From Candidatus Woesearchaeota archaeon (GTDB taxonomy: Archaea > Nanobdellota > Nanobdellia > Pacearchaeales > JAHJTO01): 64,000 nucleotides of DNA. Under the pieces are notes generated by a model. The model was not told the DNA's origin. It made no database searches and saw only the letters and a list, made by a program, of their open reading frames with translations. The stretch covers positions 16,306 through 80,305 of the forward strand of contig CAZIKY010000004.1 of the NCBI GenBank assembly GCA_964540065.1, written 5' to 3'. How positions within the stretch are numbered: the first letter of the stretch is position 1; every line of letters begins with the position of its first letter. Both the position numbers and the translations under genes were made by a program. Shown here one piece after another: positions 21,060 to 60,085 of this stretch.

Positions 21060-22694
21060 TTAGTATTCAGGCATCCCGCCCATTCCGGGCATTCCCATTC
21101 CGCCTGCCGGTGCTGACGGGCTTTTTCCTGCCGCAACTACGTCATCTATCCTAAGAAGCATCATTGCAACTTCGCTTGCGCTTTTGATCGCCTGGGTTTT
21201 GATCTTTAAAGGTTCAACAACTCCGATTCTGAAGGTGTTTTCTATCTTTCCGTTGAAAAGGTTAAGGCCTGTTTCTCTTTCGCCATGGTCATGCCTTGCC
21301 TTGAGGGCCGTAAGCGTGTCTATCGGATCCATTCCGGCATTTTCTGCCAAGATCCTTGGGATGCTTTCAACTGCATCCGCGAACTGTTCTACTGCAAGCT
21401 GCTCTCTTCCCTGCGTGACAACTTCTTTTCTTAGTCTTCTTGCAAGCTCGATTTCAATTGCTCCGCCGCCCGCAACGACTTTTCCGTCTTGAAGTGTTGC
21501 TACAACATCTCCAAGGCTGTCTTTTATCGCGCGCTCGAATTCATCGATAACATGCTCTGTTCCGCCTCGGATTAGGATTGTCAATGCTTTTGGGTTCTTG
21601 CATTCTCTCACATAAGTCATTCCGGAATCTCCTTTTCTCACTTCTTCAACAGTCTTTGCATATCCCAAATCTTTGCTCTGGAGTTCCTGGATATTGCTTA
21701 CTATTCTTGCGCCGACTGCCTTTGCGAGCTTTTCCACATCGCTCTTGCTCACTCTTCTGAGCGCGTAGATTCTTTCTTTAGCTAAGTAATATTGCGCAAG
21801 ATCATCTATTCCTTTTTGGCAGATGAGGACATTTGCCCCGCTCTGCTTTATCTTGTTAACCATGTTCTTGAGAGTCCTTTCTTCCTGGTTTAAGAAAGCC
21901 TGGAACTGCTCTGGAGAGCTTATGCTTATCTTTGTGTCTGTCTCGGGAGACTTAATCTCCAAGGCAGCATCAACTATTGCGATTTTAGCATCTTTTACAA
22001 CCCAAGGCATGTCTGCGTGAACTCTTTCTTTGTCAAGAACGATTCCTGCAATGAGTTCCGTGTCTTCAACTCCTCCGCCTTTCTGTTTCTCTATCTTTAT
22101 ATCCCCCATATCTATTGAGACTTTTCCGTTATTGTCCTGCCTCATTATCTGCTTTACGGCCTTTAAGACAATGTTTGCAAATGAATCCTTTGCGGTTTCT
22201 GCAGACTTTCCAGTCATAGCAGTCATTGCAACATTTTTCAGGACCTGCTCATCTTTTATTGACACCGGCCTTGCGAGGCTATTTAGAATGCCTAAAGATC
22301 TTTCTGCAGCCAGCCTATAACCTCTTACAATTGCTGTAGGGTGTATTTTCTGATCCAGAAGCTTTTCTGCATTTTCTAAGAGCTTCCCTGCAAAGATGAC
22401 TGAAGTTGTTGTGCCATCTCCGACTTCGTCTTCCTGCGTCTTTGCGACTTCAACGAGCATCTTTGCTGCAGGGTGCTCTATTTCCATTTCCGATAGAATT
22501 GTTACGCCATCGTTTGTTATAGTTATGTCACCTATGCTATTCACCAGCATCTTGTCCATCCCTTTAGGCCCGAGAGTAGTTTTTACTGTGTCTGCCACCA
22601 TTCTAGCGGCTAGAATGTTATTTCTCTGTGCATCTCTTCCAATCATTCTTTGAATATTTTCAGGTAAAATGTAAATCGGTTGTTTTTCAGCCAT
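21060..22694 (-). CDS. thermosome subunit (group II chaperonin, Cpn60/TCP-1 family)
   Basis: 544 aa. N-terminus ([47 protein letters not shown]), the GDGTTT ATP-binding motif and the [12 protein letters not shown]-terminal tail are all present. Confidence 0.95.
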
Positions 22695-22724: not shown

Positions 22725-22832
22725 TTTATTGTAGTCATAAAATACTTATTCTTAGAATACTTTTTCTTTAATCTCCCATAAATTTCCCGGTAGTAACACA
22801 ATAAATAAAAAGGATTCTTGCTTACAAAAATC

Positions 22833-23417
22833 ATGAAAGTCGGAATCAAAGCCGGTGATGTGATGACAAGGACTTTTGTTTCGGTTTCTCCTGAGACTAG
22901 CGCGGCGCAATGCGCCAAAGAAATGATCCAGAAAAAAGTCGGATCCCTCATTGTCAAAGAAAACCAAAATCTTGTGGGGATTTTGACTGAAGGAGACATT
23001 ATCAGATCAATTGCTAAAAAGAAAGACCTTTCTAAAATAAAGGCTAAAGAGGTAATGACAAGAAAAGTTGTTACGATCAGCCCTAATGAGGACATATATC
23101 AGGCTCTTACAAAGATGAAGGGCAAGAAGATAAGGTGGCTGCCTGTTACTGTGCAGGGGAGAGTCATCGGAATGATTACGGTTAAGGATATCGTTGTCAT
23201 AGAGCCGGAGCTTTATGACATCGTTGCTGAGTTTACACCCATCAAAGAGGAGGAAAAGAAACTTAGGATGATAGAGATGAGAAAGAAGAAGAAAGCTCTT
23301 GAGATGGGAGAGGTCTGGGCCAAAGAAGGAGAGTGCCAGGAATGCGGGGCTTATGGGGTTTTATATAAGTTTGACGGGAGGCTTATCTGTGAAGACTGTA
23401 AAGATCTGCTTGAATAA
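22833..23417 (+). CDS. CBS-domain pair protein with C-terminal CxxC...CxxC zinc ribbon
   Basis: Two CBS motifs (VMTRTFVSVSPETS..., VMTRKVVTISPNED...) and a C-terminal EGECQECG...CEDC. Start taken at the ATG (MKVGIKAGDVMT) matching the paralog at 28773. The ORF track begins at an upstream TTG (22818). Confidence 0.8.
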   Translation: MKVGIKAGDVMTRTFVSVSPETSAAQCAKEMIQKKVGSLIVKENQNLVGILTEGDIIRSIAKKKDLSKIKAKEVMTRKVVTISPNEDIYQALTKMKGKKIRWLPVTVQGRVIGMITVKDIVVIEPELYDIVAEFTPIKEEEKKLRMIEMRKKKKALEMGEVWAKEGECQECGAYGVLYKFDGRLICEDCKDLLE

Positions 23418-23432
23418 TTTTCTGCTTAATAA

Positions 23433-24527
23433 TCAATAAAACCTTTTTCTTAGAATCTCTTCCTGCTCCTTTGCTGTTGCTAAAATATTTTTTATTTTTT
23501 TAACCTTCTTAGGGTTTCTTTTAGCTATGCCTGCTGCAACCCTGATATTTCCATATACTGCGCCCACATAAAATCCGCTTTCAATATCTAATTCTCGGGG
23601 TTTGTTCTCTATGGGGCTTTTCTTGCCGTACCAAAAATCGCCCAATCTTTCTCTAATGAAATATTCTCTTTTCTCTCTTAGTTCCTTGCCTAAAGAATCA
23701 AAAACTGTTTGAAATCCGGCTGTGCAACCCAATACTAAATTTAAAGAGGTATAATCTGTCGTTCCGAAGTCAAGCATAGAGGTTAAAGTAATATTACTCG
23801 GATAAACATCTGAGGGCATTATAACTGAATGATCTTTATTTGCAAGGAAAAAGTGGGCTAAAAGTGGAAAATTTTTTCTAAAACCCTCGAATTTTTCAAC
23901 GGGATAACCTCTTTTTCCAAGTATTTCAAAATAATTTTCTAAGCTTTCATGGTAATCCTTGCAGAGTTTTCGATTAAGCGTTACTTTTCCTCCAGAAGCC
24001 TCCAATAATCCTCTTTGGATATCTTCTTTCTTTTTGTTTGTTTCTAAAATTATTTCGGATAGCAGTTCAAGCGGGTGATTCAAGAGAATATAATGAGGGT
24101 ATTCCCCCAGAATACTTCTCATATTGACGCAATCTTCCAGTGTCGGAACATTTATTACCTTCATCAAAATTGCCTTTTCTTTGTCGAAGTTTTTTTCTTT
24201 AAAGGTAAGAATTTCCGGAACTGCTGGCTTTCCATCATGCATACAATTTTTTAAATTTTCCAGAAGAACCTTTTCTTTCACAAATTCTTCTAGAGAATTT
24301 GGCTTGCTGCTCAGGTCAATAGAATCATTGTAAACCTTTAGGATATAGAGGCGATCCTTAAGCATTTTTTCTTCATGAATGACCTCAACTCTTTGCCTGC
24401 AGAATACTTCTTTTACAGTAGACTTAACTCCTTCGTTTATGTATCGGGGCTTAAAAAGTTCTACCTCCTCTGGATTTAGCCTAAGGAAACCAGATACTAA
24501 TTTTTTGTAGAAAGATTCGCTTTTCAT
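23433..24527 (-). CDS. uncharacterized protein, member 1 of a three-paralog family (possible kinase-like fold)
   Basis: 364 aa. Shares the C-terminal motif FYVGAVYGNIRV and an internal LGCTAGF region with the ORFs at 25067 and 26356. No known family recognised. Confidence 0.5.
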   Translation of the reverse strand: MKSESFYKKLVSGFLRLNPEEVELFKPRYINEGVKSTVKEVFCRQRVEVIHEEKMLKDRLYILKVYNDSIDLSSKPNSLEEFVKEKVLLENLKNCMHDGKPAVPEILTFKEKNFDKEKAILMKVINVPTLEDCVNMRSILGEYPHYILLNHPLELLSEIILETNKKKEDIQRGLLEASGGKVTLNRKLCKDYHESLENYFEILGKRGYPVEKFEGFRKNFPLLAHFFLANKDHSVIMPSDVYPSNITLTSMLDFGTTDYTSLNLVLGCTAGFQTVFDSLGKELREKREYFIRERLGDFWYGKKSPIENKPRELDIESGFYVGAVYGNIRVAAGIAKRNPKKVKKIKNILATAKEQEEILRKRFY

Positions 24528-24536
24528 TTTGTCAAA

Positions 24537-25061
24537 TCAAGGCGCAAATTGGCTTGCCATTTTAAGAAGCTGATGTGCCTTTTTTATCGCCCTTTTTCTT
24601 TGCCGCCTTGAAGGCTCTTTTTGGTGCCCAAAGTAATCTTCAAGCATCTTTTTTTCATGACCATAGTTTCTTCCCCTAACTGCTCTCGAGGTAAGTTTGA
24701 TGGTGCATCCATTTGCTATCTGGTCTTTATCCAATCCAAGAGACTTCCCTATGCCATAAATGGGTTCGAGGAGTCGGTCGTCGTATCTTAAAGCATTTGT
24801 GATTAAATCTGCCAGCTCTCCCAGATAGCTTGCCAGGCCATTTCTGTGCCTTAGTTCAAATATGATTTCGCTTATTTCACCTTGCGGCTTGTCATTATAT
24901 CCATTAAATAAGCGCTTGTAAACATCTTCTCTTGTTCTTCCAAGATTTGGATCTCCCCTCTGCCTTTCATTAATCGCCCTGGCTAAATCGTGTCTTATAT
25001 ACTCCAGTTTGTCCCTAAGAGACATTTTAAGCACTTCATCTAGGGGTTTAAGCTCCGACAT
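24537..25061 (-). CDS. hypothetical protein (174 aa, basic C-terminus)
   Basis: ORF with 5- and 9-nt gaps to the flanking paralog genes, consistent with co-transcription; no recognised motif. Confidence 0.45.
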   Translation of the reverse strand: MSELKPLDEVLKMSLRDKLEYIRHDLARAINERQRGDPNLGRTREDVYKRLFNGYNDKPQGEISEIIFELRHRNGLASYLGELADLITNALRYDDRLLEPIYGIGKSLGLDKDQIANGCTIKLTSRAVRGRNYGHEKKMLEDYFGHQKEPSRRQRKRAIKKAHQLLKMASQFAP

Positions 25062-25066
25062 TTTTA

Positions 25067-26317
25067 TTAGGCTCCGAATAATTTTTCGATCCAGCTTTTC
25101 TGATGATAAATATCCCAGGTCTTTTTGCCCGAAATTATCTTGAGGGGCTCTTCTGCCTCATAATCTTTTTTGGAGAGGATTTCAAGCTGCTTGCTCACAG
25201 CCTTGATTACCCTCTCTGGCTCATCCTTGCCTAATTTATCTCCATATCTTGCGAGCAGATTGAAATTTGCACAGACTGCTCCGATGTAAAAGCTTTTTTC
25301 AAGGGCCTCGTAATCTATTTCTTTGAGGCCCATGTTAAACTGTGCTTCAAGGGTGTTTCTTCTAGTAGGATAAACTCTTGTTAAAGCCATCTCGATTTCC
25401 TTTTCAGGCTCGGCAAACTTGAGGAAAATGTCATAGAATCCGAAAAGATGCCCGAATGTAATCCCTCTTGATCCGATTGCGATGCCTTTATTGTCTAAGA
25501 TGTAAGATGCATTGTTATGCCAAGGCCATGCCTCCGCATGAATTACTGTTTGGGATTCTTTTTCTGCAAGATATTTTTTAGCCAAAGAATTCATTGCACC
25601 GATAAATGACTGCATTTCATTATCCGATAATCTTGAATTTTTGATGATATCCATCAGAGACTTAGTATAATCGCTTTTATACTGGCCTTTTCCCAGATCA
25701 TCATGCCTAAGTTCTTTAAGGCCGCCAAATTCTTTCCCCCATTGTGCAGCAATTTTCTCGAATCCATTGGTAAACTGCGGCACCCTGTCAAACAAAAGGG
25801 TGTAAAGATCTATTGTGGAATTTAATGTCTCGAAGCTTGGCTTTGGGATTTCGCTTATTCTTTCATCGAGAGGAGGCTTTGTGCTAAAGTAAGTAAGTGA
25901 AATTCCTTTCTCGGTTAGATTCTTATGATCGTGAGTTATGGGATATGAGAACAAGGGAATAGTCCTTCTTTGTTCTGGCATCTCGCTTGCGGTGTGCCAA
26001 TGATCTTTTATGTTCTTGCAGTCTGCCTCATGGCTTTTGTAGAGCACCAGATCCAAGGCAAGATCTTCAGAAATCTTTCTTGGGGAATTTGCTCTATATC
26101 CTCTCATGAATATCGGTTTTTCATCCCCTTCTCCTGCACGGTACCTGAATTTTATCTGGGTTCTTTCTCCTTCAGTATCCAGACGATATTTTCTTGTCAG
26201 GGGGTTTCCCCAAAGCAGTTCGGCGCTGAGAACATGTTTTCCCTGAGCGTCTGCTACTTCTCTCTCGAATTCTTCCTGGCTCATTCCGCGATCTTCAAAA
26301 ATATGTTTTGCAGGCAT
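25067..26317 (-). CDS. uncharacterized protein, member 2 of the three-paralog family
   Basis: 416 aa with HAEAWPWHNNASYILDNKGIAIGSRGITFGHLFGF and FYIGAVCANFNL motifs shared with 26356 and 23433. Confidence 0.5.
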   Translation of the reverse strand: MPAKHIFEDRGMSQEEFEREVADAQGKHVLSAELLWGNPLTRKYRLDTEGERTQIKFRYRAGEGDEKPIFMRGYRANSPRKISEDLALDLVLYKSHEADCKNIKDHWHTASEMPEQRRTIPLFSYPITHDHKNLTEKGISLTYFSTKPPLDERISEIPKPSFETLNSTIDLYTLLFDRVPQFTNGFEKIAAQWGKEFGGLKELRHDDLGKGQYKSDYTKSLMDIIKNSRLSDNEMQSFIGAMNSLAKKYLAEKESQTVIHAEAWPWHNNASYILDNKGIAIGSRGITFGHLFGFYDIFLKFAEPEKEIEMALTRVYPTRRNTLEAQFNMGLKEIDYEALEKSFYIGAVCANFNLLARYGDKLGKDEPERVIKAVSKQLEILSKKDYEAEEPLKIISGKKTWDIYHQKSWIEKLFGA

Positions 26318-26355
26318 TTTGTTTTGTTTTGAATTAATTTAAAATTGATTTAAAT

Positions 26356-27555
26356 TTAAATCGGCCAACCGAGCTCCCTGAATCCGCTTAGGAATTCTTT
26401 TGCAGAATTCTCTTTTTCAGAGAGTATTTCTAGGAGCTCTACAGAAGCTCTTCTGAGCCTTCGGACTTCTTCCCATTCCCCTTTGTTTTCAAATGGAGTT
26501 CCGTAGGTGAGTCTGAGATTTCCGTATATTGCTCCCACATAAACTGCATTCTCCATCCTTTCTTTGTCTATGTCCATTCTTAGAGCATAATGATGAGATA
26601 TCTTCTTGATGCTCTCAATTGTATTATATCTCTTATCGAATAGCTCTTCGAGGGACATTCCTTGGGTTTGAGGCATGTTTGCGGCATGAAGGAAAAGCTT
26701 GTTGAAAATGCTTTCATGGAACAGGCAACCAACTTGCATTCCTGGAGAACCAATCTTTAGATCGCCTGCATCAATAAGATAATCTCCTAAATGGTTCCAG
26801 GGATAGCCATCGTGCTGGATCAGGCGCATCAGATCTTCTGCGACAAGGTATTTCTCCGCAAGGTCCGCAAAGCTAGATTCTAGTTTTTCAGAAAGACGAT
26901 GGCTCATTCTTCTTTTGTGCCCTGCATAAATGAGCATGTTTGAAACATACCTCTGCAAATCCAACTGGTCTAATTTACCGTCTCCTTCATCAAATTTATC
27001 CCTTAGTTCTGCCAGCTTCCCATTTATAGATCTAACTTCTTTTGAATCTGGTTTGAATTTATTGAGGAAATAATCCTGATCTACTGCACGGATGAGGTCA
27101 TTGGGAGTAACAACTCTTCTCCCATCATATGTTTGATGAAGTGTTTCCTTTTGCGGCCTTTCGTTTACTAATATATAATGGCCTCCCTTTTTTACAAAGC
27201 CGACACATTGCGGAAATATTTTGCCGAGAACTTTTGGGGCGACAATTTCGTTCTGGGCATCGCTCGCATCATCCTCATGAATTATCTTTACGGCATACCC
27301 TATTATCCCTCCAGGGCCCTCGTAAGGGGTTTCAAAGCTGTAGGGTTTGACAAGCGAACGGGTTCCGCCCCTCCATCTGAACATGCTGTCATATATCTTT
27401 TCTACACCTTTGCTTTCTGAAGGATCTCTCTTTGAATCAAAGCCCTTTTCCCTTACGTCTTCTAGAATAATTCCTTTTATGTCTTTGCCATACTTCTCGA
27501 ACAAAGACCAGTCTAATTTTTTTACAGGTTTTAATTTAGGTTGTTTCTTTGCCAT
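26356..27555 (-). CDS. uncharacterized protein, member 3 of the three-paralog family
   Basis: 399 aa with HDGYPWNHLGDYLIDAGDLKIGSPGMQVGCLFHE and VYVGAIYGNLRL. The Dx4N...DxG pattern is loosely reminiscent of a protein-kinase-like catalytic core; this is speculative. Confidence 0.5.
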   Translation of the reverse strand: MAKKQPKLKPVKKLDWSLFEKYGKDIKGIILEDVREKGFDSKRDPSESKGVEKIYDSMFRWRGGTRSLVKPYSFETPYEGPGGIIGYAVKIIHEDDASDAQNEIVAPKVLGKIFPQCVGFVKKGGHYILVNERPQKETLHQTYDGRRVVTPNDLIRAVDQDYFLNKFKPDSKEVRSINGKLAELRDKFDEGDGKLDQLDLQRYVSNMLIYAGHKRRMSHRLSEKLESSFADLAEKYLVAEDLMRLIQHDGYPWNHLGDYLIDAGDLKIGSPGMQVGCLFHESIFNKLFLHAANMPQTQGMSLEELFDKRYNTIESIKKISHHYALRMDIDKERMENAVYVGAIYGNLRLTYGTPFENKGEWEEVRRLRRASVELLEILSEKENSAKEFLSGFRELGWPI

Positions 27556-27590
27556 GCTCTTTCTCCCAATTTGGGCTCTGGCTCAGCTAA

Positions 27591-28607
27591 CTAATATCCT
27601 ATGACCCTAGAGATATTATGTACATAGCCTGTGATGGATTTCAGCTTCTCTACCATGCTTTCAGTACCTCTTACAACCTCTTTTGATTTAGAAAAAAACA
27701 GTTTTTCGTAGAGATCCATCATGTTTTTCTTCTTGATTGCGATTCCTCTGGCAGTTTTAATGTCCCTGTTATAAAATGCGCTCATCATTGAGATGTATTC
27801 TTCATTTATTGCATTCAATGCCGTCATGAGCTCTTTTTGGTTTATTACTCCCCTGGAATGCAGGAGCTTAGACATTCTTTTAAGTTCGTCTCCGATATAT
27901 TCGAAGTGGAGAACTACCCATTGGGCGTCTGCGATGCTTCTTGGATCGAGCTTAAGTTTTTGGAGTGTTCTGGGATCCTCATTGCATTTCCTTACTATCT
28001 TCAGGCTGAGGAAGTAAAATTTGTTGATTGCCTTGTCGGCGTTGTAAATTTCATTCATAGTCCACTCTTTCAACTTCCCTGCAGTGATTCCTTCCCTAAG
28101 ATCGTCGAACATTGACCTGACAATGTTATCAAGCCTTCTGATGATTTTGTCCATGGAGATAGCTTCGAGGTCGAGGATGTCTCTTATCATCGCTTGATTA
28201 GCATCCTGCTCTGAAACTTCAAGCCCGATCTTGTCCTGCACCAGTTTTGAAATAAAATTCTGTTTCTTATTCAGGTCTTTTCCAGTGATTATTATTTCAT
28301 TGTAGTTGTTTATATATGCAGAATTGAACTCTCTTAGGAAAGAAGTGTCATCTTTTTCGTCGATCGTCAAGGAAATCGATTTGGTTTCCTTTGCCTTGTC
28401 TGATTTCGTCGAGAGAACAAGCTCATTATTCGCTGTTTCTTCAAGAAAAATAAGATCGCCTTTCTTAAGCTTGTTCTTATCTATCCAATTTTTCGGCAAT
28501 GCGATTATATAGGAAGAGTTTCCAAACCTTATGAGTTTCCTTTGTTCGGAATCAGACATTTTAAGATATGTTTTTTTACTATTTTCAAGGTATATACCTT
28601 TTGTCAC
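27591..28607 (-). CDS. AbrB/SpoVT-domain plus PhoU-domain regulator (archaeal phosphate-uptake-regulator type)
   Basis: The N-terminal swapped-hairpin domain (RKLIRFGNSSYIIALPKNWIDKNKLKKGDLIFLE) is followed by about 250 aa of helical PhoU-like repeats. First gene of the minus-strand operon. Confidence 0.7.
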   Translation of the reverse strand: MTKGIYLENSKKTYLKMSDSEQRKLIRFGNSSYIIALPKNWIDKNKLKKGDLIFLEETANNELVLSTKSDKAKETKSISLTIDEKDDTSFLREFNSAYINNYNEIIITGKDLNKKQNFISKLVQDKIGLEVSEQDANQAMIRDILDLEAISMDKIIRRLDNIVRSMFDDLREGITAGKLKEWTMNEIYNADKAINKFYFLSLKIVRKCNEDPRTLQKLKLDPRSIADAQWVVLHFEYIGDELKRMSKLLHSRGVINQKELMTALNAINEEYISMMSAFYNRDIKTARGIAIKKKNMMDLYEKLFFSKSKEVVRGTESMVEKLKSITGYVHNISRVIGY

Positions 28608-28772: not shown

Positions 28773-29342
28773 ATGAAAATCGGAATCAAAGTAGGAGATG
28801 TAATGACAAGACAGCTTATCTCGGTCAAGCCGAGCGAGGATGTCATAAACTGCGCTCGTGAGATGGCCGCGAAAGATGTTGGGCTTGTCATAGTTATGAG
28901 GGCTGGAAAGCTCTTGGGAGTTCTTACTGAGAGAGATGTTATATGGGCTTTGACAAAAAAAGGTGACTTGAGAAAAGTAAAAGCGAGTGATATAATGCTA
29001 AGAAAGATTACGACAATAAAGCCTTCAAGGGACATTTATGAGGCCCTTGTAAGGATGAAGAAACAAAACACAAGATGGCTGCCTATAACCGTAAACAAGA
29101 GGGTAATCGGGGTATTGACAATAAACGATATCCTGAGAATAGAGCCTGGCTTGTTTGAAATCGCTGCCGGAAACATGACTATTCGGGAAGCCGAAGAGAA
29201 AATGAGAAGGAAAAGCGATGCTCTCGAGGGGAAAACAAGATGGCTTGACGAAGGTGAATGCGAAAAATGCGAAACCTTTGGATTGCTTCATAACCTTGAC
29301 GGCAGCTTGATTTGCGAAGCCTGCAAAGACGAAGGCGAGTAA
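28773..29342 (+). CDS. CBS-domain pair protein with C-terminal zinc ribbon (paralog of 22833-23417)
   Basis: MKIGIKVGDVMTRQLISVKPSED... with two CBS motifs and EGECEKCE...CEAC. Clearly collinear with the first copy. Confidence 0.8.
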   Translation: MKIGIKVGDVMTRQLISVKPSEDVINCAREMAAKDVGLVIVMRAGKLLGVLTERDVIWALTKKGDLRKVKASDIMLRKITTIKPSRDIYEALVRMKKQNTRWLPITVNKRVIGVLTINDILRIEPGLFEIAAGNMTIREAEEKMRRKSDALEGKTRWLDEGECEKCETFGLLHNLDGSLICEACKDEGE

Positions 29343-30159: not shown

Positions 30160-30660
30160 ATGTCTGAAAAAAGCAAAGTAGCTGAAGAAAAGATCAAGTA
30201 TGACGGGATTTTTGATTTTAAGGAGACTTACAGCTTCATCTATACCATCCTTTCCGACTGGGAATACAGCATTGCTGAAAAAGAGTATTCTGAAAAAGCC
30301 AAGGGAGATTCCAAGGAAATAGAGATCAAATGGGAAGCGAGCAGGAAAGTTACCGATTATTTCAAGTATCAGATGAAGGTCGAATGGAGAATCCTGGGGA
30401 TGAAGGATGTTGAAGTCGTGAAAGACGGGAAGAAGTCCAAGAAAAACAGCGGAACTCTTGAGATAAAATTTGTTTCAGTATTGATTAAGGATTATCAGGA
30501 TAAATGGAGCGACACTCCTTTCCTTAAATTTTTAAGAGGAGTATATGACAAGTTTGTTATCTCTGATGCTATTGGTGAGCAGGAAGGAAAATTAGAGGGC
30601 GAGATGAGTGAAGCAGTCAATCAGACCAAGGCTTTCTTGGTATTAGAGTCAAGAAAGTGA
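30160..30660 (+). CDS. hypothetical protein
   Basis: 166-aa ORF, Lys/Glu-rich. Confidence 0.4.
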   Translation: MSEKSKVAEEKIKYDGIFDFKETYSFIYTILSDWEYSIAEKEYSEKAKGDSKEIEIKWEASRKVTDYFKYQMKVEWRILGMKDVEVVKDGKKSKKNSGTLEIKFVSVLIKDYQDKWSDTPFLKFLRGVYDKFVISDAIGEQEGKLEGEMSEAVNQTKAFLVLESRK

Positions 30661-30769
30661 TTGCCGACGGTGCAAAAGAATAAAACGTTAGGTTTAAATA
30701 TATCGTTAGGCGGATATTAAATAAATCAGGATAAATCGATTAAAATTGATAAAAGGGGTTAAATTGAGG

Positions 30770-32182
30770 ATGAAAAGTTTGAAGTTTTTTGCTTTGGCAA
30801 TCTTGCCTGTGCTATTATTATCTATTCCATCTGTTCTTGCTGAAACCGGATTAAGCGTTACTCCTATCAAAAGTTTTGTTTTCAAAGAATTGGAAGCTCC
30901 TGCAACTTATGAGCTTACAGTCAAAAACGGCGAAAATTTTGAAGATAATTTTTACATAGATACCCTATTGGATATAGAAATTTCCCCTAAAAGTTTAGGA
31001 TCAGTTGCTGCCGGCGGAACAAAAAGATTTACTATTTCTGTCAATCCAAGCCAAGACTTGAAGAGCAAGCAGGCTGGAAAGAATTTTGCATTTGAATACT
31101 TTGTAAGGGGTGATAGATCTAAGCTGGCCAAAGACAGCATTACTGTCGGAATATTCTCTTTCCCAGATGCCTTGGAAATAACTTTCCCCCCTTCAATAGA
31201 TCCTGAGCAGAAAGAAGTAACTGTAGGATTGAGATTCAGGCATGACATAACATTAAGCGCAAATGTTAAGGCAACTTCTGAGCTTCTTTCAGATACTTTC
31301 TCTGTTAAAGATCTCAGCATAGAGAAGCAGGAAGCGGTTTTGACACTCAATGATCTGAAGGGCAAGAATGCCGGAGTCTATAAAATAACTTTTGAGTTTG
31401 AGATAGATGGCGAGAAAGTAATTGCAGAGAAAGACATGGTTCTAAGCCCAGTAGTTACAGTAAAAACGGATGAAGAGACTACTGGAGGAATACTTTCAAG
31501 CGAGACAAAAGTCACTAAGACAAATAATGGGAATAGCGCTACGGATGTATCTATCCTGCTTAATCGATCGGTAGTTTCAAGCCTTTTCACCACATTCAGT
31601 GATGCTCCTAAAACAAGGAAAGATGGAAGATTTTATCTTTATGAATGGGAAAAGGAGCTTAATCCTGGAGAAAGCTACACTGTAAGCCTTAAGACCAATT
31701 ATTACGTTCCGTTCTTGGTATTTTTATTGTTGCTTCTTGCTCTTGTAGTTTTCAAGATAGTTACAAAGTCTCCTGTAGAGATAACTAAGAAAGTAGCAAG
31801 AGTAAGGACAAAATCCGGGGCTTTTGCAGCCAAGATAATAATTTCCGCCAAGAACACAGGTAAGCCAGTGAGCAATGTCAAGATAATTGACAGACTTCCA
31901 GCTTTCACAGAAATACTTTCAAATAAGTTCAGCGTGCTTACACCTTCTGAAATAAAGAAGAGGTCTGTTGTCTGGAGCATCCCTCAGATGTCCACAGGCG
32001 AGGAAATAATGTTCTCATATATCGTCTACAGCAAAGTAAACATCTTCGGAAGGCTTGAAGTGCCTCCTGCAGTTGTGACTTTCATAGACAGCAAGGACAA
32101 TTTCCTTGAATCCCAGAGCGATAAGATTTACATAATCTCTGAGGAAGAAAAGAAAGAAGAGGATCTTAATCCTCCTTTGTAA
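30770..32182 (+). CDS. secreted, C-terminally membrane-anchored cell-surface protein (unknown)
   Basis: N-terminal signal peptide (MKSLKFFALAILPVLLLSIPSVLA) and a TM helix near residue 320 (VPFLVFLLLLLALVVF). The ATG is at 30770; the ORF track uses an upstream TTG at 30746. Confidence 0.5.
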   Translation: MKSLKFFALAILPVLLLSIPSVLAETGLSVTPIKSFVFKELEAPATYELTVKNGENFEDNFYIDTLLDIEISPKSLGSVAAGGTKRFTISVNPSQDLKSKQAGKNFAFEYFVRGDRSKLAKDSITVGIFSFPDALEITFPPSIDPEQKEVTVGLRFRHDITLSANVKATSELLSDTFSVKDLSIEKQEAVLTLNDLKGKNAGVYKITFEFEIDGEKVIAEKDMVLSPVVTVKTDEETTGGILSSETKVTKTNNGNSATDVSILLNRSVVSSLFTTFSDAPKTRKDGRFYLYEWEKELNPGESYTVSLKTNYYVPFLVFLLLLLALVVFKIVTKSPVEITKKVARVRTKSGAFAAKIIISAKNTGKPVSNVKIIDRLPAFTEILSNKFSVLTPSEIKKRSVVWSIPQMSTGEEIMFSYIVYSKVNIFGRLEVPPAVVTFIDSKDNFLESQSDKIYIISEEEKKEEDLNPPL

Positions 32183-32280: not shown

Positions 32281-32413
32281 CCCTGTGTAGCTCAATGGTG
32301 GAGCTCTCGGCTGTAGCTCAAGCGTTAAGTTGACGTTCCTTTCAGGACGAGAATGATACTTAATCAGCCGAATGGAACCCGAGTGGTTGGCGGTTCGAGT
32401 CCGCCCGCAGGGA
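32281..32413 (+). tRNA. intron-containing tRNA, likely tRNA-Tyr (anticodon GTA) with ~61-nt intron at canonical 37/38
   Basis: Acceptor stem CCCTGTG/CGCAGGG with discriminator A. D-arm GCTC-AATGGTG-GAGC. Anticodon stem 5' half CTCGG plus loop CTGTAG are interrupted by about 61 nt (32317-32377) before the 3' half CCGAG. T-arm GGCGG-TTCGAGT-CCGCC. Confidence 0.7.
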
Positions 32414-41973: not shown

Positions 41974-42065
41974 TGATTAAAGAATATGCCTTTTAATTTA
42001 AACATTCCCTTTTTCCCTACAGCATTAACAAGATTTAAAAATCTACTTTTTCTTTAAAAGTTTGT

Positions 42066-42137
42066 GCCTCAATGGTGTAACGGCTAGCACGCAACCCTGT
42101 CACGGTTGTAGTCCGGGTTCGAAACCCGGTTGGGGCG
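42066..42137 (+). tRNA. tRNA-Asp (anticodon GTC)
   Basis: GCCTCAATGGTGTAACGGCTAGCACGCAACCCTGTCACGGTTGTAGTCCGGGTTCGAAACCCGGTTGGGGCG. Acceptor GCCTCAA/TTGGGGC, anticodon stem CAACC/GGTTG with loop CTGTCAC, T-arm CCGGG-TTCGAAA-CCCGG. Confidence 0.85.
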
Positions 42138-42138
42138 T
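42127..42138 (+). repeat. 12-nt tRNA-Asp 3'-end sequence (CGGTTGGGGCGT), first copy of a direct repeat
   Basis: The identical 12-mer recurs at 42899-42910, about 770 bp downstream. A possible att-site duplication. Confidence 0.4.
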
Positions 42139-42246
42139 AGTACATTTTTGCATTTTTTATGGGCGTCGAAAGTATGTCATAAACAGTCCAAGATGTTTAT
42201 ATTAAACATAGGTTATATTGAGAAATATAAATTTAAAAAAGAATAT

Positions 42247-42657
42247 TTATTCTGCTATGGATATTCCCCTAACCTTACTTTTTAGATGAGGAAATTCTCT
42301 TAATAGTCTTCTTATACTATTATGAGTCTTAGACAATCCCGGATTAATCTTTAAGGCATCAGTGTAAGATTTTAATGCGTCTTCTGGATAACCAAATCCT
42401 CCTAATATCTCCCCCATATTATTATGAGCATAAGACAATCTCGGATTAATCTTTAAGGCATCAGTGTAAGATTTTAATGCACCTTCAAAATCGCCTTCCT
42501 TATGCAAATCATATCCCTGCGAAAAAATATCTATAGCGTAGTTTAGTGATATCTGTTCTAAAGGAGAGAGTTCAATATTTTTTGGATAACCAAATGACTC
42601 AGCTGTTTCTCTGCTAATAGAATTTCTTTTATTCCCCGCATTATATATTAGTTTCAT
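42247..42657 (-). CDS. TPR repeat protein
   Basis: 136 aa with two nearly identical 34-aa TPR units (ALKSYTDALKINPRLS / ALKSYTDALKINPGLS). Confidence 0.6.
   Translation of the reverse strand: MKLIYNAGNKRNSISRETAESFGYPKNIELSPLEQISLNYAIDIFSQGYDLHKEGDFEGALKSYTDALKINPRLSYAHNNMGEILGGFGYPEDALKSYTDALKINPGLSKTHNSIRRLLREFPHLKSKVRGISIAE
42319..42480. repeat. nucleotide-level tandem duplication (two ~60-nt copies, period 102 nt) inside the TPR gene
   Basis: Copy 1 is at 42319-42378 and copy 2 at 42421-42480. They are about 93% identical and correspond to one duplicated 34-aa TPR unit. Confidence 0.6.
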
Positions 42658-42898
42658 ATAGTATAGATAATCTCCACCTATTTAAATCTTTCTATTTGTT
42701 ACTACTCTCAAGAGATTATAAAACTAGCATGAAAGACTAATTAATTTTATTATCGACAAAAATAAAAAACAATTCTATTTCACCAGAAAATTTTATCTTC
42801 TCATTCTCGACAATTCTTAAAAACTCTGAGAGTATGTAATAATTATGACGTAATAAGAGCGTTTGACGCCCTTTGATTATGCAAAAAGCTCTTCCCTT

Positions 42899-42910
42899 CG
42901 GTTGGGGCGT
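42899..42910 (+). repeat. second copy of 12-nt tRNA-Asp 3'-end direct repeat, within a hairpin-capable element
   Basis: CGGTTGGGGCGT is embedded in GACGCCC...GGGGCGT. That element can form a 6-bp stem, ACGCCC pairing with GGGCGT. Confidence 0.4.
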
Positions 42911-43101
42911 TTCTGGAACTCGAAATTAAATCCGATGCCCATTTATTAAAATGAATCTTTCGGATTTACAAAAAATAAATTTTGATGATTTCCATAAATT
43001 TACTCTTTCTTCTTCCAAAGCAATTTTTATTACTTCTTCATTCTTGGGAAGTTATAGTTTGGTGACCTTCAAAGAACCAGCTATAAAAACTTTTTTAAGT
43101 T

Positions 43102-45117
43102 ATGAATTCTTATAAACGCATGTTAAAAAAGAGGTTTATAGGTCTGATATCTGCTTTTGTTTTTCTGCTTGCAATTTCGGGATTTGCAAATGCTGCAACA
43201 TTAAACGTTAAGCATGATATTACAGTAAATATTCATGAAGATTCATCTTATGATTATGATCATGCATTTACATACAATCCCCGTGAGTATTACAAAAGCT
43301 TTTACTATTTCTTTATACCTGGTAGTTTCAATGATGTTTCTATTACTGCTGACGGAAAGCCTGTGACTATATCTGAAATTACTCCTCCACGATTTAAGGG
43401 AGGATTATTTAGCTACAAAATAATTTCTCCAAACCCCGAAAAGAGCAGTATTTCGGTAAGATTAAAAGCTACTGGAAAATTGATAGAGCTTAACGAAGAA
43501 GGCATTTACAAATTGGAAAATGTTGCTTACCCTGCAACATTTAATCCCTCAACAACAGAAGTTATAGAAATTTTTAATTATCCGAGATCCTGGGATGCGG
43601 TTGCGTACAATAGAGACATACCTTCAATAAATGCAGATAAAGGCCACAATTCGTTGGTACTTAGGTCTAGCGGCTTAAACTCTTTTGTAGGAGTCACTTT
43701 AGTTAATGAGAATGTTTCTGCTGGAATTGAAACTATTCGGAAAGGAGGAGTCACTTTAAAAGTTCAGAACCATTCAAAGCTTAAAGAAGCGGTAAGAATC
43801 GCTTCAGAGAATCTTAATTATGTAAGAAAATTAACTAACGGTGAAATCTTTATCTATGTAGATACTAGGACAGAAGAAGAGTATGGGGGGGCACTGCCTT
43901 CAGCATTTTATTCTTTAGATTCAGCAAGTGGATATATTGAAAACTCATTAAATTATGTCTCTCCGGAAGAAGCTTCTGCAACAATAATCCACGAACTAAA
44001 CCATTTCTCAAATGATGTTAATGATGCCGGGCCATTCCCCGTGTGGCTGGAAGAAGGATTGGCAGAAAATCAAGAATTAAAATATAGTTCAGACAAGTAT
44101 CCCTCTTATGCCTTCAAATCGATACCCCAGAAATGGCAATTGGAAGCATGGTATGGTGATGGAAGTTATTTTGGAGAAAGCAGACTTATAGAACTCCAAC
44201 CTATAGAAGATTACTTCCTATATGCTTTTGTTATAAGGCATTTTGAAGAGAAATATGGAAATGCCGCTTTAGAATCTGCATTATTAGAAATAAATCGTAG
44301 AATGAAAACTGAGAAGCCCGACTTTGAAGGTTTCGTTACTGAAGACTATCAAGAATTTTATGATAGGATAGCAACCGAAGTCTTTGCATCGAGAGTTGGG
44401 GGCAATAAAGAAGATTTCTTCTTCCCAGAAAAAGACCTATTCATTTCAGACCCCCATGCTTTTGAAGAGAAATTATCAAAATTTTACCGGAAGGATTGGA
44501 CTGCCAGAGAGGTTATGTTTGAATGTTTGAGTAATGGACAAGATCCCTTCGAATGTGAAGACCGAGTTTATGGGTCAAAAGCATTGATCGAATCACTCAG
44601 GCCACAGGCGTATATCGCATTCATTGAAGATTATGGCTCTACAAGCGAGGCCATAGAAGCAGGGTTTTTAGAATGGGAAAATAGCCCTGAAAAAGCAGAA
44701 TTAGATGCCGCATTAGAAGCAGAATTGGAAGAGTTTTATCAAAGCGAAATAGAGTCTACTTTCGGAATCGGGATCTTGACAGCAATACTTGCAATATTAA
44801 CATTATTTTTCCCGCATAAAGGCTATCGTAAAGAAATCAAAGAGCTAAAACAAAAAGGCATAAAACTTAAAATAAGGGCTATGATGGGAATTTTATCTTC
44901 ATTCATAGCGTGGATAATACCCTTTATGATATTATTGATGGGAACTACGGCAACATTCAGAGATGGAAGAATATTCTCTGGGATACTGATCATGCTTATA
45001 GCAGTATTTTTGACCCCAACCTTTCAAAAATATTTGAAGAAACAAGATCTTCCTGTCTCCGGTTGGGTTAGGGTAGGATTAGTTGTTCTATCCTTTGTTA
45101 TATTTATATACCTCTAA
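43102..45117 (+). CDS. secreted zinc-metallopeptidase-like protein (HExxH...E, gluzincin-type) with C-terminal TM helices
   Basis: 671 aa with a signal peptide and an HExxH...E pattern (IIHELNHFSNDVNDAGPFPVWLEEGLAE). The last ~100 aa contain 3-4 hydrophobic helices. Confidence 0.5.
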   Translation: MNSYKRMLKKRFIGLISAFVFLLAISGFANAATLNVKHDITVNIHEDSSYDYDHAFTYNPREYYKSFYYFFIPGSFNDVSITADGKPVTISEITPPRFKGGLFSYKIISPNPEKSSISVRLKATGKLIELNEEGIYKLENVAYPATFNPSTTEVIEIFNYPRSWDAVAYNRDIPSINADKGHNSLVLRSSGLNSFVGVTLVNENVSAGIETIRKGGVTLKVQNHSKLKEAVRIASENLNYVRKLTNGEIFIYVDTRTEEEYGGALPSAFYSLDSASGYIENSLNYVSPEEASATIIHELNHFSNDVNDAGPFPVWLEEGLAENQELKYSSDKYPSYAFKSIPQKWQLEAWYGDGSYFGESRLIELQPIEDYFLYAFVIRHFEEKYGNAALESALLEINRRMKTEKPDFEGFVTEDYQEFYDRIATEVFASRVGGNKEDFFFPEKDLFISDPHAFEEKLSKFYRKDWTAREVMFECLSNGQDPFECEDRVYGSKALIESLRPQAYIAFIEDYGSTSEAIEAGFLEWENSPEKAELDAALEAELEEFYQSEIESTFGIGILTAILAILTLFFPHKGYRKEIKELKQKGIKLKIRAMMGILSSFIAWIIPFMILLMGTTATFRDGRIFSGILIMLIAVFLTPTFQKYLKKQDLPVSGWVRVGLVVLSFVIFIYL

Positions 45118-45796
45118 GAAAATTCAATAAGTTATTATAATCATCAACGAGGCGATTATAGTCTTTTCTCAAGTCATTATAATCCATGACTAAATTATTA
45201 TGCTTTGTACGCAATGATTCATATTGTGATAGGAGGAGAGTATACTCTTTTTCTGCAGCTTCAAGATCCGTCTTGGCTTCGGCTTCAGTTTCTTTGACTG
45301 CTTGGAATCCTTTCTTTTCTAGTTCTAAATACTTTTCATTAAGTGAAGTATAACTCGCTTCGGCGCTTCTTAGATCTTCATTCAAGTCAGAGATAATAAA
45401 CTCTAGATCTGAAATCTCTGTTAAAAGTTCGTTTTCTGCTTGATTTGCTAATACTGCGTTTGTAATTAATGCTATGGTGAGGAGGATTATTGTAAAAGTT
45501 GGCAGAACTCTTTTCCATTTTGACCATAAAGCTTTTGATTTTGACACCAATTTAGAATTTTTTTTGAATAAAGCTCTTCTAACAAGTCTTGATCTGCATT
45601 TGGGACATTTTTTTGCAAATAAAAGTTCTTTCCAAGATTTGGCTTTAAAATCCCACTGGTGACTGCACTTCATGCATTTTAGGTGCATTCCCTTTCTCTT
45701 ATCTCTCCACCTTAATAAAAGCGCGGCGATAAATAAGTAAATTATTATCCATCCGACTGTACTTATCTCAAAAATAAATCTAGGACTTTTTTTCAT
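45104..45796 (-). CDS. membrane protein with zinc ribbon (CxxC...CxxC) and C-terminal coiled coil
   Basis: 230 aa with TM - CMKCSHQ...CPKCRS - TM, then a heptad-rich acidic region. Confidence 0.4.
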   Translation of the reverse strand: MKKSPRFIFEISTVGWIIIYLFIAALLLRWRDKRKGMHLKCMKCSHQWDFKAKSWKELLFAKKCPKCRSRLVRRALFKKNSKLVSKSKALWSKWKRVLPTFTIILLTIALITNAVLANQAENELLTEISDLEFIISDLNEDLRSAEASYTSLNEKYLELEKKGFQAVKETEAEAKTDLEAAEKEYTLLLSQYESLRTKHNNLVMDYNDLRKDYNRLVDDYNNLLNFLRGI

Positions 45797-45901
45797 TAAA
45801 ATACCCCCAAGTTTTATGCTCTTTGGAAATTAGTGAAGTATATAATATTTTCGTAAAATGAATAAGAAAAATTTAAATAAATACTCTCCCTTAAAAATTT
45901 C

Positions 45902-46345
45902 ATGAAAAAGAGGAAGAGAAATAAAAAGGTCTTGATATTGTCATCAGCGATTGTTCTAATATTAATTATTTTAGGGATCTTCCTTGCGTTAAATAGCTTC
46001 CAAGAAAAATCTTGGCAAGACTTGATTTCATTCAAGGGAACTGGAAGCATTCAAACAGATCCCTTCAAGATTGAAGGAGATAGGATAAATATGACCTTCA
46101 CAATATATTGCGGGATAGAAAAGTGCCAGAATATCGGTTTTTCGTCATCCGAATTGTGGCAGTATGAAAAAAATCTAAGTATCGCCCCTTCAGACATCGA
46201 TATCAACTATTTCCAAGACCAAGGAGAAATTTCTAAGTCAAGAATTGTAGAATTCCTTGGAGACAGAGAAGCTTGGGGGGAAAATTTTTACTTGAAAATT
46301 AGGTCCGACGTTCCTTGGGAAGTTAAAATTTCTGAGTATGCCTAG
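45902..46345 (+). CDS. small secreted protein (signal peptide), unknown
   Basis: 147 aa with an N-terminal basic plus hydrophobic signal anchor. Confidence 0.4.
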   Translation: MKKRKRNKKVLILSSAIVLILIILGIFLALNSFQEKSWQDLISFKGTGSIQTDPFKIEGDRINMTFTIYCGIEKCQNIGFSSSELWQYEKNLSIAPSDIDINYFQDQGEISKSRIVEFLGDREAWGENFYLKIRSDVPWEVKISEYA

Positions 46346-58662: not shown

Positions 58663-58974
58663 ATGAAAATGATGAAAAAAATTGGACTAATCGGACTGCT
58701 TGGAGTAGCGGCAGTTTCTGGTTCCGGATGCACTAAGAATGATATATCTAAGATTGGGGAAGATGTTAAAATTACTCGACCAGAAAACTGTGCAACTGTG
58801 CAGGATCTCAGATATGAATTCGGTTACGCGAATAGAGATTATCAAATTCTATGCAAAGATAAAAGCGGCAATCTAGCACTCTATAGGAGAGATAGAAGTG
58901 AAGACTCCTGGACTAAGATTTATGTAGCTGATGCAGAATACGGAGCTGCAAAATGCCAGGAGGATGGGAGATAA
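58663..58974 (+). CDS. small lipobox-containing secreted protein
   Basis: 103 aa with a signal peptide ending AAVSGSGC (lipobox-like) and four further Cys. Confidence 0.45.
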   Translation: MKMMKKIGLIGLLGVAAVSGSGCTKNDISKIGEDVKITRPENCATVQDLRYEFGYANRDYQILCKDKSGNLALYRRDRSEDSWTKIYVADAEYGAAKCQEDGR

Positions 58975-58975
58975 A

Positions 58976-60085
58976 ATGGCAAGCAAAAAACAAAGTCACG
59001 AATTTGAAGGAAATGAAAGTGGAGATGCTCCCTTAAAGAAGAGCCTCTTGGAGAAAGTTCTTACTTATACTGGCGGAGCGATCTTAGGAGGAACAATTTT
59101 CCTTGGAACTTGTGTCAGCTACGTCAAGCCGGATCACTTTGGAATAAAACAGGTGGAGATGTCTCCATTTGGATTGCTCGGAGGCAAGGGAATCCATAGT
59201 GAAGTTTATGACACTGGATATCATGTAGTCCTGCCTTTGTTTGAAAAAATGCATATGCTTCCAAAAGATAAGCAAGTGCTTTACTTGAACCGAGAAAAAG
59301 GATTGACTGCTGAGGAGCAGAAGTATTCCACTGAAGTGGCTCCTGCAAACATTCAGACTTCTGATGGGTTCTACATTACATTAGATGCTTCCATCATTTA
59401 CAAGATAAAAGATCCTTACAAGGTTATCACGACTCTTGGAGCTGGAAGGCTATTTGAGCAGAATGGAATAATTCCAAAAGCAGAGCCTGCTTTAAAGGAA
59501 GCTTTGGGAATAATGAATCCCGAAGATTTTTACAACAGCCCGCTTAGGGTCGAGAAGCAGGAGACTGCTAAAGACTTGCTTAATCGGCTGCTTGAACCAA
59601 AAGGTGTGCATGTGGAACATGTCTTGATAAGATACCCCGAATACCATAAAGAAGTTCAGGCTAGAATTGAAGGAAGGAAACTTCAAGACCAGCTAGTCTA
59701 CACTAACCAGTCAAAGGCAAAGGAAAGATCTGCGCAGGCGCAGTTCCAGAAAATGACTGAAGAAGGTCTTGCTGATAAAAAAGTCAAGGAAGAAGAAGGA
59801 AAAGCTTACATTACAATGAAAAACGCAAGCCGAGACCTTTACACCAGAAAGAAAAAGGCGGAAGCCGACAAGCTCGTTAAGTTAGCTGAAGCTAAGAGAA
59901 CCGAGCTCGTGAATGAAGCTTACAGAGGAGAAGGTTCAGAGAAGCTTCTTGGTATGGAAATGGCTGAAGTGCTTAAGGGAGTAGATAATGTCATCATAAC
60001 TACTGGAAAAGAGCAGGGATTCAACCCTCTCGATCTTGAGAGTTTGATGAAGATGTGGAATATCAAAGATGGAGGAAAAAAGTAA
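58976..60085 (+). CDS. SPFH/band-7 domain protein (HflK/stomatin-prohibitin-like)
   Basis: Start taken at the ATG (MASKKQ...) preceded by GGAGG. The ORF track begins upstream at 58931. It has a TM helix, then an SPFH core (FGIKQVEMSPFGLLGGKGIHSEVYDTGYHVVLP...ITLDASIIYKI) and a coiled-coil tail. Confidence 0.7.
   Translation: MASKKQSHEFEGNESGDAPLKKSLLEKVLTYTGGAILGGTIFLGTCVSYVKPDHFGIKQVEMSPFGLLGGKGIHSEVYDTGYHVVLPLFEKMHMLPKDKQVLYLNREKGLTAEEQKYSTEVAPANIQTSDGFYITLDASIIYKIKDPYKVITTLGAGRLFEQNGIIPKAEPALKEALGIMNPEDFYNSPLRVEKQETAKDLLNRLLEPKGVHVEHVLIRYPEYHKEVQARIEGRKLQDQLVYTNQSKAKERSAQAQFQKMTEEGLADKKVKEEEGKAYITMKNASRDLYTRKKKAEADKLVKLAEAKRTELVNEAYRGEGSEKLLGMEMAEVLKGVDNVIITTGKEQGFNPLDLESLMKMWNIKDGGKK

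Follow-up and report, generated by a model that had tools for sequence, protein, structure and literature searches.

What are the three related hypothetical proteins encoded between positions 23433 and 27555 of this DNA, and does each of them work as an enzyme? The stretch analysed, hereafter the window, is a 64,000-nucleotide (nt) segment of an archaeal chromosome (Candidatus Woesearchaeota archaeon, contig CAZIKY010000004.1) with a guanine-cytosine (GC) content of ~40%. A preliminary description had recognised the three proteins, here P1, P2 and P3, as paralogs with a weak kinase-like signature and had left the family unassigned. We find that they belong to a divergent archaeal sequence family whose members are probably protein-kinase-like phosphotransferases of the aminoglycoside phosphotransferase/choline kinase (APH/ChoK) fold. 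The explanation we favour, to which as a whole we give a probability of roughly 0.7, is a four-gene extension of an operon led by an AbrB-PhoU regulator, made up of a predicted active kinase, a degenerate partner, a small protein and an extra paralog.

Five open reading frames (ORFs), all on the minus strand, follow one another head to tail at 23433-28607, separated, in the order given below, by gaps of 35, 38, 5 and 9 nt. The fourth was absent from the preliminary description.

27591-28607, minus strand: AbrB(SpoVT/MazE-type)-PhoU regulator, first gene of the operon (Pfam PhoU 1.5e-7 in two stretches, MazE_antitoxin/AbrB 4.4e-7)
26356-27555, minus strand: P1, 399 residues, predicted active kinase of the APH/ChoK fold, with a complete catalytic set
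25067-26317, minus strand: P2, 416 residues, degenerate, pseudokinase-like paralog as judged by clade residue signatures
24537-25061, minus strand: small 174-residue operon protein, possibly MazG-like (GEISE-x16-GELADL ... IKLTSR)
23433-24527, minus strand: P3, 364 residues, third, divergent paralog with catalytic residues kept and the segment after the DFG motif degraded

A divergent family of paralogs

BLASTP aligns P1 with P2 at 1e-18 (29% identity over 258 residues), P1 with P3 at 3e-7 and P2 with P3 at 3e-6. On these alignments the three are true paralogs, with a similarity far beyond chance. The C-terminal motif that all three had been said to share is borne out, the ORFs and the quoted peptides being found at their exact coordinates.

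26509-26544, minus strand: VYVGAIYGNLRL, the P1 copy, a family-specific C-lobe helix motif (Y339, G341, A342, N346, R348) inside helix 331-348
25256-25291, minus strand: FYIGAVCANFNL, the P2 copy, DNA coordinates checked exactly
23538-23573, minus strand: FYVGAVYGNIRV, the P3 copy, DNA coordinates checked exactly

Word-indexed homolog searches returned just 2, 3 and 5 proteins, and the sole named match was a 'Nanoarchaeota archaeon' hypothetical protein at 37% identity. An exhaustive HMMER profile search over 1.84 billion cluster representatives was needed to reveal the family; it found 74 relatives at E ≤ 1e-3, 51 of them at E ≤ 1e-10. Conservation was counted in a 73-sequence family alignment in P1 numbering, with denominators that vary by column. 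Y339 (53/71), N346 (65/71) and Q374 (63/71) stand out in the C-lobe, and D249 (53/69), P252 (66/73), D262 (65/73) and G276 (64/73) in the catalytic block. The preliminary description had reckoned with motifs that might vanish as more homologs were aligned; they persist across the 73 relatives, so that this objection falls away.

P1, P2, P3 and the 174-residue protein have no match in Pfam, NCBIfam, PADLOC, PHROG or the PDB sequences. With PF01636 and the NCBIfam models, nothing was found at E ≤ 1 for P1-P3 or at E ≤ 0.01 for the 73 relatives. The PDB sequences were searched with single sequences and with profiles of 4, 6 and 73 sequences, and the profile searches returned no APH chain at E ≤ 10; matches to the CaMK1D N-lobe (E ~1) and to OspC (E 0.05) were taken as noise. 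The family has been seen so far only in DPANN-type archaeal genomes and in metagenomes, and on its sequences it is a lineage-specific, fast-evolving family of the DPANN 'Nanoarchaeota'. The literature searched on DPANN archaea or Woesearchaeota in connection with APH, pseudokinases or AbrB-PhoU yielded no description of the present family.

Predicted fold and active site of P1

An AlphaFold2 model of P1 built from the 73-sequence alignment reached a predicted local distance difference test (pLDDT) score of 90.9 and a predicted template modelling (pTM) score of 0.91. A model built from 4 sequences (pLDDT 54.6), in which the catalytic block was wrongly helical, was dropped in its favour. The P1 model has a bilobal, protein-kinase-like fold with an APH-type helical C-terminal lobe. 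Its nearest structures are PDB 3csv, 8agy (the corramycin kinase ComG), 6ef6 (aminopropanol kinase), 2pyw/2olc (methylthioribose kinase) and choline kinases, with structural-match figures of 17.8 for ComG, 17.6 for aminopropanol kinase, 17.1 for LxmK, 16.9 for methylthioribose kinase and ~16.5 for the choline kinases. The best match, 3csv, is itself an uncharacterised kinase and so gives no clue to the substrate. Of the routes to an assignment that the preliminary description had proposed, sensitive profile searching gave no library match, and structure prediction pointed to the APH/ChoK fold. APH membership therefore rests on the predicted structure, as no sequence-profile method reaches PF01636.

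The conserved residues fall on the expected secondary-structure elements of the model.

27355-27369, minus strand: P1 GGTRS, equivalent of the glycine-rich loop in the beta1-beta2 turn, between strands 54-56 and 67-74; G64, T65 and S67 are conserved in the family
27280-27297, minus strand: P1 YAVKII, beta3 with the predicted ATP-binding Lys90, inside strand 85-93 (K in 54/63, R in 7/63)
27238-27252, minus strand: P1 NEIVA, alphaC helix with Glu103, inside helix 94-110 (E in 46/64)
26764-26817, minus strand: QHDGYPWNHLGDYLIDAG, P1 catalytic loop (D249, N254) and putative Mg-binding D262 (DFG equivalent), placed by conservation and by hhalign to NPTII
25487-25537, minus strand: AEAWPWHNNASYILDNK, catalytic-loop block of P2, in which the alignment places Glu at the catalytic Asp

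E132 stands at the end of beta5, in the hinge. D249-G-Y-P-W-N254 follows directly after strand 244-247 as the catalytic loop, and D262-A-G is the equivalent of DFG. When the family profile was aligned by hhalign with APH(3')-IIa (NPTII), using a query sequence that matched 1nd4 at 6.9e-179, D249 fell on D190 and D262 on D208, in register and with an E-value of 0.025 that alone is not significant. The kinase-like catalytic loop and DFG-like block of the preliminary description correspond to D249-x4-N254 plus D262, and the upstream ATP-binding Lys/Glu pair, which it had named as a feature to look for, is present as K90/E103. This beta3 Lys and alphaC Glu pair is found in P1 and in P3 (YILKVY/KEKVLL), and not in P2. 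Of the Brenner motif H-x-D-x4-N, the D-x4-N part occurs in P1 (DGYPWN) and P3 (DVYPSN), the His is Gln in the family consensus, and in most relatives the fifth position after the Asp is His, followed by Asn. All three proteins, and 65/73 family members, have the Asp of (I/V)D-x-G, D262. K90, D249, N/H254 and D262 are jointly kept in 39/63 callable representatives, 33 of which also keep E103; the other 24/63 lack at least one of the four.

On this model P1 would be an ATP-dependent phosphotransferase. The GTxS loop, K90 paired with E103, and E132 of the hinge would form its Mg-ATP site, with D249 acting as the catalytic base on the acceptor hydroxyl and N254 and D262 holding the Mg ions, roles that we infer from equivalence to D190, N195 and D208 of APH(3')-IIa. 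The acceptor could be a small metabolite or a peptide.

P1-P3 and their relatives differ from the APH and choline/ethanolamine kinases of PF01636 in several respects. Sequence models do not detect them, the Brenner His is replaced by Gln, often with an extra His/Asn (DGYPWHN), and they have C-lobe motifs of their own, Y-x-G-A-x-Y-x-N-x-R plus a conserved Gln; they also occur in obligatory intact/degenerate tandem pairs in an AbrB-PhoU operon. The marks of a eukaryotic-type protein kinase (PF00069, including Rio and Bud32), namely a whole-domain fold with the eukaryotic protein kinase C-lobe, GxGxxG and an APE/activation segment, were not found. In contrast to Rio1/Rio2 and the Bud32/Kae1-associated kinase, with which only 165-186 residues align, P1 has an APH-like C-lobe, lacks GxGxxG and stands in another genomic context.

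P2 as the predicted degenerate copy

Which of the three copies has decayed was judged from a neighbour-joining tree together with residue signatures and position-by-position counts. The clade of P2 is degenerate; those of P1 and of P3 (P0003, with P0031, P0035, P0045 and further relatives) are intact. P1 keeps 28/35 consensus positions and every catalytic residue, P2 22/35 and P3 24/35. In the P2 clade the GTxS of the glycine-rich loop is exchanged for another conserved motif, KYRKN[ST]xA, Arg mostly stands in for the beta3 Lys, no alphaC Glu remains and N replaces R348. P2 of the window itself shows K90 to R, E103 to D and D249 to E, and has lost G64 and S67, yet retains full-length homology to the family profile (profile positions 3-387). 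With key residues lost and the fold retained, P2 answers to the definition of a pseudokinase and is predicted to be inactive. The P2 clade seems to evolve under constraints of its own.

P3 retains GVKS, the Lys of YILKVY, the Glu of KEKVLL, SDVYPSN and a literal DFG (LDFG), and its losses lie just after the DFG, where G269 and L278 have both become T and P281 has become Q. Its clade is that of P0031, P0035 and P0045, in which its nearest relatives are only ~25% identical, and it is absent from the related loci L001, L004, L006 and L007. We take P3 to be an additional paralog, old, divergent and confined to the source genome; it could be a second, possibly weaker, kinase. The preliminary description had P3 as the copy that partly lost the catalytic block and P2 as intact. 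The 'IGS.G...G.LF' part of P3 is indeed lost, and its catalytic loop and DFG (SDVYPSN...LDFG) are kept. The accompanying idea of one active enzyme with degenerate paralogs survives in so far as P1 is intact; it is P2 that has the crippled ATP and catalytic site, and P3 keeps the core.

Conservation of the operon

Related loci come from one single-cell genome (Nanoarchaeota archaeon SAG AM-311-I10) and from metagenomes. In the window and in L001, L006, L007, L008, L011, L012 and L021, the gene immediately upstream of a family member encodes AbrB-PhoU, with gaps of -11 to 35 nt; L012, L011 and L021 hold more distant members of the family. L006, L007, L008 and L004 share a layout of a CBS gene (-), then AbrB-PhoU, a P1-type gene, a P2-type gene and a protein of ~170-195 residues, then a CBS gene (-) and the gene for the thermosome. 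In these four loci, start and stop codons either overlap or have only a few bases between them, and L001 is without the small gene. The order AbrB-PhoU, P1-type, P2-type, small protein is found in L006, L007 and the window.

P2-type genes are always preceded by a P1-clade gene, with tiny or overlapping gaps, and pairs of an intact gene followed by a degenerate one occur in 7/9 related loci examined. Where family genes are adjacent, the first is always intact and the second degenerate, with losses specific to the clade: in L009, P0023 is followed by a P0032-like gene in which D249 has become E and D262 has become S; in L012, P0031 by a P0066-like gene in which D249 is K; and in L020, a P0026-like gene by P0020, in which K has become R and D249 has become N. 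L011 and L021 each have a single, longer, intact family gene in the genome. The strict adjacency, the overlapping codons and the recurrent pairing of intact with degenerate genes suggest that P1 and P2 form a heteromer, in which P2 would most likely be a non-catalytic, pseudokinase-type partner, for example one that shapes or regulates the acceptor site of a heterodimer. The AbrB-PhoU protein would be a likely transcriptional or sensory regulator.

Between genomes, the kinase-like proteins and the small protein are 37-41% identical, PhoU 63%, CBS 70-73% and the thermosome 78%, which makes the kinase-like genes and the small gene the least conserved of the neighbourhood. The most distant family member, P0057 (L022 7001-8698, GCA_038849635.1; 565 residues, E 2.5e-8), is flanked by ftsZ and an HD-domain gene and does not share the AbrB-PhoU context.

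The small operon protein

Orthologs of the 174-residue protein occupy the same position in L004, L006 and L007 (6e-35 to 3e-39). Only 5 homologs were detectable, none with a Pfam domain, and the protein had no Pfam, PDB-sequence or PHROG match. Its family has an invariant GE(I/L)SE, then 16 residues, (E/D)LADL and later IK(L/Y)xSR. In the resulting ExxE-x16-ExxD, E62, E65 and D85 never vary and position 82 is always acidic (E or D; 6 homologs), a pattern that agrees with the metal-binding ExxE-x(12-28)-ExxD motif of MazG (PF03819). In global hhalign alignment the ExxE...ExxD...KLxxR is in register with the E. coli MazG N-domain. Locally, the alignment with a reference of 11 MazG domains from E. 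coli and phage sequences scored 21.4 (E 0.007). None of 120 column shuffles came up to that score (11.4 ± 2.0, maximum 17.8). The reversed query scored 16.9 and unrelated helical profiles no more than 16.2, and over these two controls the margin is small. The protein differs from MazG in an extra N-terminal helix region of ~50 residues. It may be a MazG-like nucleotide pyrophosphohydrolase, and would serve as a third co-inherited subunit or an accessory enzyme.

Weighing the alternatives

Several observations weigh against the explanation of an active kinase with a degenerate partner. Neither PF01636 nor any other model is reached by a sequence-profile method. In the family consensus (IQxDGYPWHN), Gln takes the place of the His in the Brenner motif HxDxxxxN, the hairpin from the Asn to the Asp is ~5 residues shorter than in APH(3')-IIa, and in some P1-clade members (P0007 and P0012) Gln replaces the beta3 Lys. 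Most members of the P2 clade retain D249 and D262, and an Arg at beta3 is by itself no proof that P2 is inactive. The likeness of the small protein to MazG is only suggestive, and part of the synteny may reflect the general colinearity of closely related genomes.

In P0007 (L007 1746-2810) and P0012 the Gln at beta3 is accompanied by a Lys at the alphaC Glu position. That lineage may have moved its catalytic Lys, much as in WNK-type rewiring, or may have lost its activity.

The retention of D249 and D262 leads to a possible, though unlikely, alternative in which the P2-type proteins are active kinases or nucleotide-dependent enzymes with a non-canonical ATP site (beta3 Arg, KYRKN[ST]xA), the operon then encoding two or three activities. 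The conservation of a basic beta3 residue as R or K would fit this, as would the fact that the substituted loop is itself a conserved motif. However, P2 of the window has Glu for the catalytic Asp and lacks both the alphaC Glu and the Gly/Ser loop, and second genes of other clades lose D249 (K, N, R or a gap) or D262 (S, N), so that the second position seems to tolerate the loss of catalysis.

The proteins might instead be protein or peptide kinases rather than small-molecule kinases, acting on Ser/Thr of, for example, a neighbouring product in the manner of the APH-fold LxmK, TvaE, YihE/SrkA or CotS-type coat kinases; we consider this rather improbable. We are more sceptical still that they inactivate xenobiotics or antibiotics as true resistance-type APHs, with duplication and diversification serving to cover several toxic compounds. 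The fold does match the APH(3'), APH(2''), corramycin, amicoumacin and macrolide kinases, and the rapid divergence and lineage-specific duplication would suit such a role, but the genes keep a fixed chromosomal place in a PhoU-type operon beside housekeeping genes in every genome examined, show no signs of mobile elements and no PADLOC match, and systematic degeneracy of one member of a pair would be unexpected for stand-alone resistance enzymes. Defence-system and mobile-element readings were rejected on the absence of a PADLOC match and on the conserved synteny with thermosome, Sua5, TGT and other housekeeping genes. That none of the three is catalytic, the family being a kinase-fold scaffold or ligand sensor with ancestral motifs, is the least probable view: the Gln at the Brenner His and the P1-clade members without a beta3 Lys would agree with it, but joint retention of the catalytic residues in the 39/63 representatives, across ~20-40% identity, is hard to explain without catalysis.

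Neighbouring genes and other features of the window

Two CBS-pair paralogs, ~45-50% identical and each with a C-terminal CxxC...CxxC zinc ribbon, bracket the operon, and both positions are kept in the related loci L001, L004, L006, L007 and L012.

28773-29342, plus strand: CBS-pair and Zn-ribbon protein, divergent neighbour (Pfam CBS 1.6e-25; position kept in L001, L006, L007, L012 and L021)
22818-23417, plus strand: second CBS-pair and Zn-ribbon protein, convergent neighbour (Pfam CBS 3.8e-31; kept in L001, L004, L006, L007 and L020)

The second of these sits between the operon and the thermosome gene (21060-22694). Genes for Sua5, TGT, a 2-oxoacid dehydrogenase complex and other housekeeping functions lie near the kinase-like block. 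In the single-cell genome, a 580-residue, Asn/Thr-rich protein with a signal peptide (L001 13063-14805, minus strand) is encoded between the CBS and thermosome genes; it is absent from the window.

Two ORFs without a Pfam match adjoin the CBS gene, at 30160-30660 (plus strand, 166 residues) and 30746-32182 (plus strand, 478 residues), and are kept beside it in L001, L006 and L012 with 53-55% and 39-49% identity, respectively. The longer protein, with an N-terminal hydrophobic segment and a late stretch resembling a transmembrane segment, is likely to be a surface protein. ARAGORN made no call at 32281-32413 (plus strand), where Rfam matches a tRNA over 133 nt (50.8 bits); this is probably an archaeal tRNA with an intron. 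The region at ~42000-46000, directly after tRNA-Asp (42065-42138), is low in GC (0.33-0.35 against ~0.40) and may be an integrated element; it holds a 671-residue ORF (43102-45117) without any Pfam match. Tandem SPFH/Band-7 paralogs at 58931-60085 and 60069-61214 (both plus strand; Pfam 7e-24 and 8e-27) overlap by 17 nt.

Discussion

Kinase-pseudokinase pairs are a general principle of eukaryotic signalling, with LKB1-STRAD and HER2-HER3 as examples. By analogy, the operon encodes a complete paralog together with one that has lost key residues and appears to be still under selection. Unlike those pairs, both partners here are of the predicted APH fold and are encoded in an archaeal operon, and the losses of the degenerate partner differ by clade.

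A doubtful further step would be to see in the AbrB-PhoU, kinase, pseudokinase and MazG-like module an unrecognised DPANN system of phosphate- or nucleotide-linked signalling or salvage. A kinase-pseudokinase heteromer might then modify a protein, or yield a phosphorylated metabolite or second messenger; turnover or supply of that product might fall to the MazG-like subunit; and the PhoU-type sensor, possibly with the flanking CBS proteins, might exert control. Rapid divergence would in that case be adaptation to different hosts or environments.

What is new here is the sequence family and the operon variant; the fold is already known. As a new family within a very well known fold, it brings an annotation gain rather than a new fold or principle, and it is a useful annotation of DPANN 'dark matter'. 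The protein-kinase-like superfamily would gain a family that current profile libraries miss, and prokaryotes would offer an example of a kinase/pseudokinase tandem whose degenerate copy has lost different residues from clade to clade. The genomes of DPANN archaea are tiny, and for a large share of their genes no function can be assigned; here, four 'hypothetical' genes and ~70 relatives become one testable unit in a fixed chromosomal position.

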